A stretch of DNA of 64,000 bases from Schmidtea polychroa (Eukaryota), in contig CM097885.1 of assembly GCA_044892525.1 (NCBI GenBank), positions 21,826,001-21,890,000 of the forward strand, given 5' to 3'. Position numbers and translations under genes: made by a program. This document shows, piece by piece, positions 32,701 to 35,700 of the stretch; the stretch's first letter is position 1, and the number at the start of each line of letters is the position of its first letter. The notes beneath the pieces are model-generated. The model searched no databases, had not been told where the DNA came from, and saw only the letters and a list, made by a program, of their open reading frames with translations.

Positions 32701-35700
32701 TATTATCTATTACAAATGCCTTAAATATCGGCTGGATAGTTGAGAGTCAAGATACAGGATTTGATGATGAGGAAGAAACTCAAGAAACCGATACTCAAGA
32801 AATTGATGAGGAAATCTATGAACCTATAGAGGAACCTATAGAGGAACCTATAGAGGAACCTATAGAGGAACCTAAAGATAATATTACGAATGATTGTATT
32901 GATCATGTCGTTGAAAATATAATGAAATGTGGAGATGACGACTGCGAATGTGTTAATTAATAAATCTTAGTTAATTAGTGTTTGTAAATTTATTTAAAAT
33001 TTTATTTAAAAATCAAACAAAAATAACTATATTAATTTTTATTTAAAAATCTTGATAAAATATACAAAATAGCAACACCTGTTGCAAGTTTTACATAGTT
33101 TTTAAATTTTCTTTTCTGCTCATCAATTTCCTTCGCATTTCTAGCGAGTTGATTGAATACGCCCCATCCGCCATTGGCTTCAATCCATGGTTGGAACTTT
33201 GACTTGATTATCTAGAAAATAAATATTAATAAAATATAAATTATAAAAGTATTACTTCTTGAGACCACTGATAATAGTGCTCTGAGTCCCATAGACTTCT
33301 TTCGATAATTATTTTCATATAAGCGAACCCTACTAGTATTCGGGTCCACTTCATCTGATCGTCGCATAGACAGTTAAAAATTCTATTAAAATAGAATTTT
33401 TTGGTTTCCAGACAATCGGAATTGATCACATCTTCATAATCAATGTGATTACCTTCTATGACCTTTTCGGTTCGATCGACCAGGAAACATATGCTTTCCA
33501 TAATATTCCTGTTGACGAGTTCTCTTAAAAGATTTTCCATAAATTGAGACATTTTTACAATAATTTAAAATATGATGTTTTATTTATACTAATACCTGAG
33601 GATTTTGATTGGTTTATAGACTATAAATGTAAAAGAAAGGTTTTGATTTGATACACCATGAAAACTATATTCATATTGCTAATTATTATAACGAGTGTGT
33701 GCTCACACAATACAACAATAACAGTGGAGTCTTTTAATAAATCAATATGTGTTTGTCCGAATACAGCCAAGTTGATGGATATTTTATATATTCTCGACAA
33801 ACCAAAATGGTCAAAGCATCCAGGAAAAAGAATATCTCAAAGATTGGAGAATTTAGAAAACAGTTATGAACTATCATTTGAATATATACAAAATATTAAA
33901 TTTGAATTGATTCATCATATTAAAGTTTTCAATAACTCCATTGCTGAAAATAAAAAGAATATGAAAATTATTGATAAGAAGCATGATTATTTGTTAAAAA
34001 AGATTGAATTATTATTAAGAGAAATTCAAACAATCAAAGGATCAATAGAATCTCTGAAAATCAATTCAACGTTACCAATTTCAAACAATATTGCTGCAAA
34101 TAGTAGTACATCAATATTTAGTTTACCTTTGTTAATTTTACATTATTTTATTGTTTAAATAAATGTATGTTTTGTTGATTTGTTTAATAATACCCTTGTG
34201 ACTTGTTGAGCGTGACCAGTACCCTTGCGAGCATTACCCATAGGGGGACAAAATATTTTGTCGGATAAACTCGGGGCAGTACCCTTGCGAGCATTACCCA
34301 ATAATAATAATAATAATAATAATAATAATAATAATAATAATAATAATAATAATAATAATAATAATAATAATAATAATAATAATAATAATAATAATAATAA
34401 TAATAATAATAATAATAATAATAATAATAATAATAATAATAATAATAAACAAAGTCGTACCTGATTGGATGATTGACAAATCACGCGCAAATTACTTAGT
34501 AAATTTTGAACATTTTTGAAAATTTTAACCATAAATCAGTCTCTGACTAAAAAATTAATAACTTTTGTACCACTGATGATAAAAATTATTTAAATGGCTC
34601 AAAAGATAGATTTTCGACTGGCCTTCAAAATGATGTATAAATATTTAAATAATTTTGAAAATTGAAAAAGTTCTGGGAAGTCAAAAGGTAGGTCACCGCT
34701 AGATCACTTAATAATATTTTTGAAAAATAATAATAATTTTAACCAAATTAGTGTCTGACTAAAAAATTAATAACTTTTGTACCACTGATGATAAAAATTA
34801 TTTTAATGGCTCAAAAGATAGATTTTCGTCTGGCCTTCAAAATGATGTATAAATATTTAAATAATTTTGAAAATTGAAAAAGTTCTGGGAAGTCAAAAGG
34901 TAGGTCACCGCTAGATCACTTAATAATAATATGACCTTGAAAATAATAATATTTTGAAAAATAATAATAATTTTAACCAAATTAGTGTCTGACTAAAAAA
35001 TTAATAACTTTTGTACCACTAATGATAAAAATTATTTCTATGGCTTAAAAGATAGATTTTCGTCTGGCCTTCAAAATGATGTATAAATATTTAAATAATT
35101 TTGAAAATTGAAAAAGTTCTGGGAAGTCAAAAGGTAGGTCACCGCTAGATCACTTAATAATATTTTTGAAAAATAATAATAATTTTAACCAAATTAGTGT
35201 CTGACTAAAAAATTAATAACTTTTGTACCACTGATGATAAAAATTATTTCTATGGCTTAAAAGATAGATTTTCGTCTGGCCTTCAAAATGATGTATAAAT
35301 ATTTAAATAAATTTGAAAATTGAAAAAGTTCTGGGAAGTCAAAAGGTAGGTCACCGCTAGATCACTTAATAATATTTTTGAAAAATAATAATAATTTTAA
35401 CCAAATTAGTGTCTGACTAAAAAATTAATAACTTTTGTACCACTGATGATAAAAATTATTTTAATGGCTTAAAAGACAGATTTTCGTCTGGCCTTCAAAA
35501 TGATGTATAAATATTTAAATAATTTTGAAAATTGAAAAAGTTCTGGGAAGTCAAAAGGTAGGTCACCGCTAGATCACTTAATAATAATATGACCTTGAAA
35601 ATAATAATATTTTGAAAAATAATAATAATTTTAACCAAATTAGTGTCTGACTAAAAAATTAATAACTTTTGTACCACTAATGATAAAAATTATTTCTATG

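Follow-up and report, generated by a model that had tools for sequence, protein, structure and literature searches.

A predicted spliced Bcl-2 homologue in a Maverick element of the planarian Schmidtea polychroa, probably derived from a host messenger RNA

The window analysed in this study, a stretch of 64,000 nucleotides from the genome of Schmidtea polychroa (contig CM097885.1, positions 21,826,001 to 21,890,000), contains a Maverick/Polinton element, and within this element lies a two-exon gene that resembles Bcl-2 family members. The features on which the following account is based are listed below by their positions in the window.

16492-36440: 19,949-bp Maverick/Polinton element bounded by long terminal inverted repeats
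16486-16491 and 36441-36446: 6-bp target duplication flanking the element
18968-23074, minus strand: predicted protein-primed B-type DNA polymerase (Atlas 0.96; PF03175 in 27-47% of cluster members)
24881-24833, 24772-24733, 24636-24589 and 24510-24468, minus strand: intron candidates of a small gene (40-49 nt, 5-9% GC)
25374-25841, minus strand: adenovirus-type cysteine protease, or adenain (PF00770, E 3e-6)
25786-27009, minus strand: predicted double-jelly-roll major capsid-like protein (Atlas 0.97-0.98; PF21738 in 15-65% of members)
28368-29459, minus strand: rve integrase with chromodomain (rve E 1e-5, under the Pfam cut-off)
30067-30693, minus strand: A32-like packaging ATPase (PF04665, E 4e-7)
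30792-31229, plus strand: TBP-fold accessory ORF (PF00352, E 8e-14)
33552-33256, minus strand: Bcl-2-like exon 1 (297 nt, 99 codons), with predicted helices 1-5, part of helix 6 and a divergent BH1
33255-33212, minus strand: putative AT-rich GT-AG intron in phase 0 (44 nt, GTAATA...TTCTAG)
33211-33032, minus strand: Bcl-2-like exon 2 (59 codons and a stop), with BH2 and a hydrophobic tail

The terminal inverted repeats, the 6-bp duplication and the gene set, with the polymerase and the capsid protein as predicted members, identify the element as a Maverick/Polinton. The protease and the ATPase pass the Pfam cut-offs. The polymerase gave no Pfam polymerase match and no relevant PDB sequence match, and the capsid candidate was likewise left unnamed by the Pfam and PDB sequence searches, the support for both coming from Atlas only. 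The TBP-fold ORF is conserved across other Maverick families at 56-88%. The Bcl-2-like gene had been called viral in a preliminary description, a label that is appropriate in the sense of an integrated Maverick/Polinton but not in the sense of a known free virus. The element is young and abundant, with at least 150 near-identical copies: the best 40 of 1,639 candidates for the element DNA are all at least 96% identical, and the best 150 of 2,369 candidates for exon 1 are all at least 95% identical, 149 of these 150 being free of stop codons.

Several other features of the window were observed. Upstream of the polymerase, at least four GT-AG intron candidates, all of them short and AT-rich, were noted in a small gene (24927 to ~24150, minus strand). 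The integrase holds a 75-nt in-frame GT-AG intron candidate (29071-28997, minus strand) that consists of an (ATT)n microsatellite and would account for the poly-Ile run in the raw integrase ORF. An intron of the (ATT)n type, 42-63 nt long, likewise occurs in a sister Bcl-2 family. Another small gene (32575-32960, plus strand), which is acidic and has a tandem repeat of 12 bp, harbors a 41-nt GT-AG intron candidate at 32597-32637. Divergent from the Bcl-2-like gene lies a 166-aa ORF (33658-34158, plus strand) with hydrophobic ends and a coiled-coil-like middle, which is 84% identical in a sister family. Finally, a 709-nt perfect inverted repeat at the right end of the window (60251-64000) possibly belongs to another element.

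The two exons of the Bcl-2-like gene would together encode a spliced product of 158 aa (99 plus 59). The intron has a GC content of 9%, compared with 32-35% in the exons, and a TATA-like word is located ~35 nt upstream of the start codon. This two-exon model with its 44-nt GT-AG intron had been put forward in the preliminary description, and the coordinates and the length of 158 aa agree with it; exon 1 has the BH1-like motif, exon 2 the BH2, and the C-terminal stretch is hydrophobic, all as it had claimed. Its statement that the gene is hidden from the ORF track is correct for exon 2. However, exon 1 is visible within an unspliced 103-aa ORF (33552-33241) that is present in the ORF list, and therefore the gene is not wholly hidden.

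Assignment of the gene to the Bcl-2 family is supported by profile, motif and fold evidence. Scored separately, exon 1 matches positions 12-65 of PF00452 (E 0.011, 16.7 bits) and exon 2 matches positions 86-100 (E 0.29, 12.2 bits); a profile search for Bcl-2 had been proposed as a check, and its outcome is mixed, as the exons match consecutive parts of the profile but each stays under the curated cut-off of 31.4 bits. Three sister copies, in which the in-frame intron was read through with an X, score 31.2, 34.6 and 34.4 bits, and an intronless sister protein scores 32.8 bits. The best PDB sequence matches of the sister copies are A1/Bfl-1, schistosome BCL-2 and Bcl-xL, and the family profile matches Bcl-xL at E 1e-9.

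Among the motifs, the BH2 signature W-x4-G-G-W is intact in exon 2. In BH1 the Trp and the Arg are kept and Lys-Thr replaces Asn-Gly, a departure from the canonical NWGR; Ser or Thr at the position of the BH1 Gly also occurs in the host paralogue and in other Maverick versions. In Bcl-2 and Bcl-xL this Gly is needed for BH3 binding. Helix 2 lacks the effector-type BH3 motif L-x-x-x-G-D, having the Leu and the Asp with Val at the Gly position, and the Asp is absent in the sister families; the motif is present in the Bax/Bak-like genes of the host. The tail has a best 15-residue Kyte-Doolittle mean of 1.81, compared with 1.66-2.13 in three cellular homologues, and its hydrophobic stretch, which is itself short, is followed by a short polar/basic end, so that a C-terminal membrane anchor is predicted.

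For the fold, the sister copy P0003, whose exon 1 is 90% identical to that of the window gene, was modeled with AF2 from 117 sequences (pLDDT 90.9, pTM 0.80); this model includes nine intron-derived residues and an X and is not the window protein itself. It replaced a first AF2 model from 11 sequences (pLDDT 53.5, best Foldseek E 0.055). The P0003 model matches Bcl-xL both in Foldseek (E 8e-4) and in VIA (Z 12.1, rmsd 2.6 over 120 residues), which bears out the Bcl-2 fold claimed earlier. The top 30 VIA rows are Bcl-2-fold proteins without exception, and the matches to viral Bcl-2s are weaker (best E 0.011). This support is partly circular, because the AF2 alignment was itself rich in Bcl-2 members. 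Nevertheless, the combined evidence supports the view that the window gene is a member of the Bcl-2 family with a predicted Bcl-2 helical fold.

The predicted intron was examined across the genome with a motif parser that was run on 192 loci and gave 130 hits, from which repeat fetches of one place were removed by hand via their coordinates; the parsed set consists of best hits rather than a random sample, with frameshifted or unrelated loci left out. It comprises 85 intron-type places, 78 of them with GT-AG ends at the same codon boundary, three with other ends and four without a parsed acceptor, and 13 further places without an intron. The introns range from 30 to 63 nt and comprise 13 lengths and 20 distinct sequences. 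Some of them keep the reading frame and others do not; a stop codon is present in each of those that do. Even between families in which exon 1 is merely 37-45% identical the boundary is retained. Aligned with the host homologue L032, which has no intron at that site, exons 1 and 2 of the window gene adjoin with zero gap; among the candidate GT and AG sites, the chosen pair is the one that gives this result. Conserved GT and AG ends, a variable interior and flanks colinear with intron-free homologues are all traits of spliceosomal introns. When the downstream 223 nt were shuffled with the donor fixed, 68 of 20,000 shuffles gave an AG that reopened 59 stop-free codons.

Exon 2 is under purifying selection. 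Sixteen loci were tried and 11 were parsed for this analysis, and in the resulting 11 pairs the dN/dS of exon 2 is 0.08-0.26, with p<0.05 in nine; exon 1 gave 0.07-0.31 in six pairs and was saturated in five. Exon 2 contains no start codon, and the selection acting on it therefore implies that it is joined to exon 1 by splicing, which we regard as a strong inference and as the most likely state of the window gene. Protein collections queried with exon 1 returned only unspliced predictions of 103-108 aa, as would be expected if the 103-aa ORF were the real product and exon 2 a relic. However, these entries probably come from intron-blind gene calling, the truncated form would be devoid of BH2 and the tail, and exon 2 is under purifying selection; we find an unspliced product hardly credible. 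A search with exon 2 against the longer proteins of the collections gave no match, which is weak evidence, and the intronless sister protein had no match in the protein collection either. The spliced gene would thus be an example of Maverick cargo that is missed by intron-blind annotation.

The likely source of the gene is found in the same genome. The host gene L032, which is single-copy, is 48% identical to the intronless Bcl-2 ORF of a second Maverick family (L043-L048, L081-L082 and L088-L089; polymerase ~59% and capsid ~78% identical), in which this ORF is placed between the polymerase and the TBP block. In a 54-row tree, where the spliced forms were represented by exon 1 only, both Maverick groups fall into one clade with L032 and its database relative P0009, with support of 97/92; a 21-row tree recovers the host and Maverick group at 90/92 with two unplaced proteins inside. 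A single Maverick capture was not rejected by the AU test (p 0.50). The spacing from BH1 to the BH2 Trp is 39 residues in L032, P0009 and the window gene and 38 in the intronless Maverick protein, compared with 44 in most others, and a helix 5-6 hairpin shorter by ~5 residues is common to L032, P0009 and both Maverick groups. Furthermore, the tail of the window protein aligns with the last exon of L032 ungapped at offset 0 with a score of 40 (9/42 identical), which none of 10,000 shuffles reached; BLASTP of the two tails gave no local alignment.

Two further sets of Bcl-2-like sequences were noted. The compact proteins P0011, P0013, P0023 and P0025 are sister to the host and Maverick clade in the 54-row tree; contigs of up to 13.8 kb carry members of the P0011 cluster, and a search for the DNA context of P0011 among viral or metagenome contigs found nothing. 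In the host genome, seven near-identical Bcl-2 genes (L021-L027; G000:C4, ~89.9-90.8 Mb) are grouped within ~0.9 Mb; their NWGR is canonical, and their BH2 is not followed by a GT.

The position of the intron is informative about the route of capture. In L032, the codon of the BH2 Trp is directly followed by an intron of 2,972 nt, and the last exon encodes the tail; a GT comes directly after this codon in five of the nine host-like loci examined. The window gene is uninterrupted at this point and the Maverick copies lack the host intron exactly, whereas their own intron is located 16 codons upstream of it, at a site where none of the nine host-like loci has one. A comparison of the intron position with host Bcl-2 genes, suggested in the preliminary description, thus places the window intron away from the host site, and inheritance of the intron at the host BH2 site was rejected. 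The exact absence of the host intron indicates capture via mRNA, and it is likely that the gene was copied from a host messenger RNA. Given such a capture, the best explanation for the intron 16 codons upstream is that the element itself gained it.

An alternative, which concerns the origin only, is that the intron is old host heritage: the gene would have been captured as DNA from a paralogue that had an intron at this site, a gene that has since disappeared or was missed, and the intronless Maverick version would have lost the intron or come from a separate capture. Neither tree resolves how L032, P0009 and the two Maverick groups branched relative to one another, which leaves room for such a history, and the intron does resemble other short AT-rich introns. 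On the other hand, the distribution of introns among the host-like loci and the clean lack of the BH2 intron in the Maverick copies both argue against it, as do at least six other short AT-rich GT-AG intron candidates in the element, which lie within genes that are not host-like and on account of which the element seems to gain introns readily. We therefore consider host heritage of the intron rather unlikely, and the sequence comparisons are still best read as a capture at the mRNA level, after which the element gained an intron.

Taken together, it is probable, though well short of certain, that the window gene encodes a spliced, tail-anchored Bcl-2 protein of 158 aa that was obtained by mRNA capture from L032 and holds off host cell death by way of the BH3 of Bax/Bak-like proteins. 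In this scheme, an ancestral Maverick would have captured an mRNA-derived copy of the host paralogue, one Maverick lineage would later have gained a short AT-rich intron, and another would have stayed intronless. The element would be transcribed in the nucleus, where the host spliceosome may remove the intron; the tail of the product would insert into the mitochondrial or ER membrane, and its groove could sequester the pro-death BH3 helices of Bax/Bak-like proteins during replication and integration of the element. Planarian Polintons are described as PIWI-repressed and as de-silenced during differentiation in the part of PMC8532177 consulted, and this de-silencing would provide a time window for expression.

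A host gene that groups with Bax-like proteins has a recognizable BH3 exon. The predicted complex of the intronless sister protein with the host Bax/Bak-like BH3 scored 0.77, compared with 0.02 for the best control, and involves contacts with BH1 residues (the runs agreed to at least 89%, and the partner pLDDT was 63 or higher). The mark used for this score was reached by 51 of 78 solved pairs and by two of 108 mismatched ones, in a calibration that contained no peptides, and the pass may reflect resemblance to similar complexes that have already been solved. The prediction is therefore a sign of likeness rather than of binding, and it concerns the intronless sister and not the window protein.

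An anti-apoptotic role is plausible and likely, favored by the lack of an effector-type BH3 motif and by the predicted complex of the sister protein, with the Thr at the position of the BH1 Gly speaking against it; two other functions have to be weighed. First, the gene and its splicing may be real and the Bcl-2 fold may serve a non-apoptotic role, such as engaging a Beclin-type BH3 in autophagy or damping innate signaling, the latter being what poxvirus proteins of the N1/A46/A52 type do. The loss of the BH1 Gly leaves room for such a role, the BH1 is non-canonical and the hairpin five residues shorter, and the fold matches include N1L, A52 and A46 at Z of 5-6. However, BH2, the BH1 Arg and the membrane tail are all kept, BH3-binding pro-survival proteins head the fold matches (Z 10-12), and binding to a host BH3 is predicted for the sister protein, so that we judge a non-apoptotic role to be unlikely. 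Second, the protein could promote death, either through a dominant-negative action on host pro-survival proteins or as a Bax/Bak/Bok-like effector that aids particle release. Bax and Bok are indeed among the fold matches (Z 8.5-10.4), and L032, the donor paralogue, has no assigned function. Nevertheless, the Val in place of Gly in helix 2 sets the protein apart from the Bax/Bak-like genes of the host, and the genome contains at least 149 unstopped copies, both of which speak against this reading; a pro-death role seems very improbable to us.

Bcl-2 cargo in this class of elements was already known, and the window gene adds a real, selected and most likely spliced member to it. It is slightly less routine in that its donor can be traced, that the host intron was lost exactly and that a new intron seems to have been gained. 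In one genome the likely donor occurs beside two derivatives, one intronless and one that appears to have become intron-bearing again, which makes this a case of traceable gene capture by a Maverick and is relevant to the ways in which DNA elements take up host genes and come to contain introns.

With the cellular pro-survival proteins Bcl-xL, A1/Bfl-1 and schistosome BCL-2 (PDB 3spf, 6rjp and 7jmt), the predicted protein shares the fold (Z 10.6-12.1), BH2 and a hydrophobic tail, and with L032 and P0009 it shares the shortened hairpin, its tail being colinear with that of L032. It differs from both the cellular Bcl-2 proteins and L032 in being shorter, in its non-canonical BH1 and in a degenerate BH3, and from L032 also in having another intron instead of the host BH2 intron. 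The viral Bcl-2s, namely ASFV A179L, KSHV Bcl-2, EBV BHRF1, iridovirus Bcl-2 and adenovirus E1B-19K, have a compact Bcl-2 fold and eroded BH motifs in common with it, but are only 9-19% identical in sequence in the fold searches. Descent from adenovirus E1B-19K was rejected (weak match, E 2.0, TM 0.34-0.40). The kinship to E1B-19K or to herpesvirus and poxvirus Bcl-2s to which the preliminary description had alluded thus did not survive as shared descent; the gene groups with the host paralogue, and the viral proteins appear to represent analogous captures.

A limited literature search, with Repbase entries outside its scope, found no article that treats a Bcl-2 gene of planarian Mavericks or the intron of such a gene. 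Homologues of Bcl2 and IAP have been reported in adintoviruses and animal Polintons (Starrett et al. 2021, PMC8502044), and Bcl2 labels occur three times in the portion of its supplementary maps that was available. The string 'Splic' is absent from the main text of that article as accessed, and the examined part of its supplement has no entry for Schmidtea, Dugesia or Girardia. As in the adintoviruses, the Bcl-2 gene of the window is an accessory gene in an element flanked by terminal inverted repeats that also encodes PolB, integrase, adenain, an FtsK-type ATPase and capsid; in contrast to them, it is predicted to be spliced and has a likely donor in the same genome.

The second comparison is with the Burro elements, giant LTR retrotransposons of planarians that carry BCL2-like and BIR/IAP domains according to the accessible part of PMC6431247; the IAP module of Burro1 reportedly protects stem cells, as cited second-hand in the portion of PMC13465017 consulted. 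In the present genome, a Bcl-2 domain was also observed in open frames of up to ~3,000 aa with many copies (L122-L129), which would fit the description of Burro. Like the Maverick, Burro takes host domains of the anti-apoptotic type aboard a mobile element, but it is a retroelement with the Bcl-2 domain within a polyprotein. The Burro-like domain has the canonical spacing of 44 residues and branches apart in the 54-row tree, which suggests that it was captured separately; a joint Maverick and Burro clade was not rejected by the AU test (p 0.26). It is conceivable, if rather doubtful, that intron-gaining Mavericks carrying a host Bcl-2 mRNA copy and a new intron are expressed from their at least 150 young copies at a level sufficient to raise the cell-death threshold, as a second independent transposon-borne survival factor beside the Burro1 IAP. 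Considered together, Burro and the Maverick suggest that cell death is a recurring barrier to large mobile elements in the same animal.
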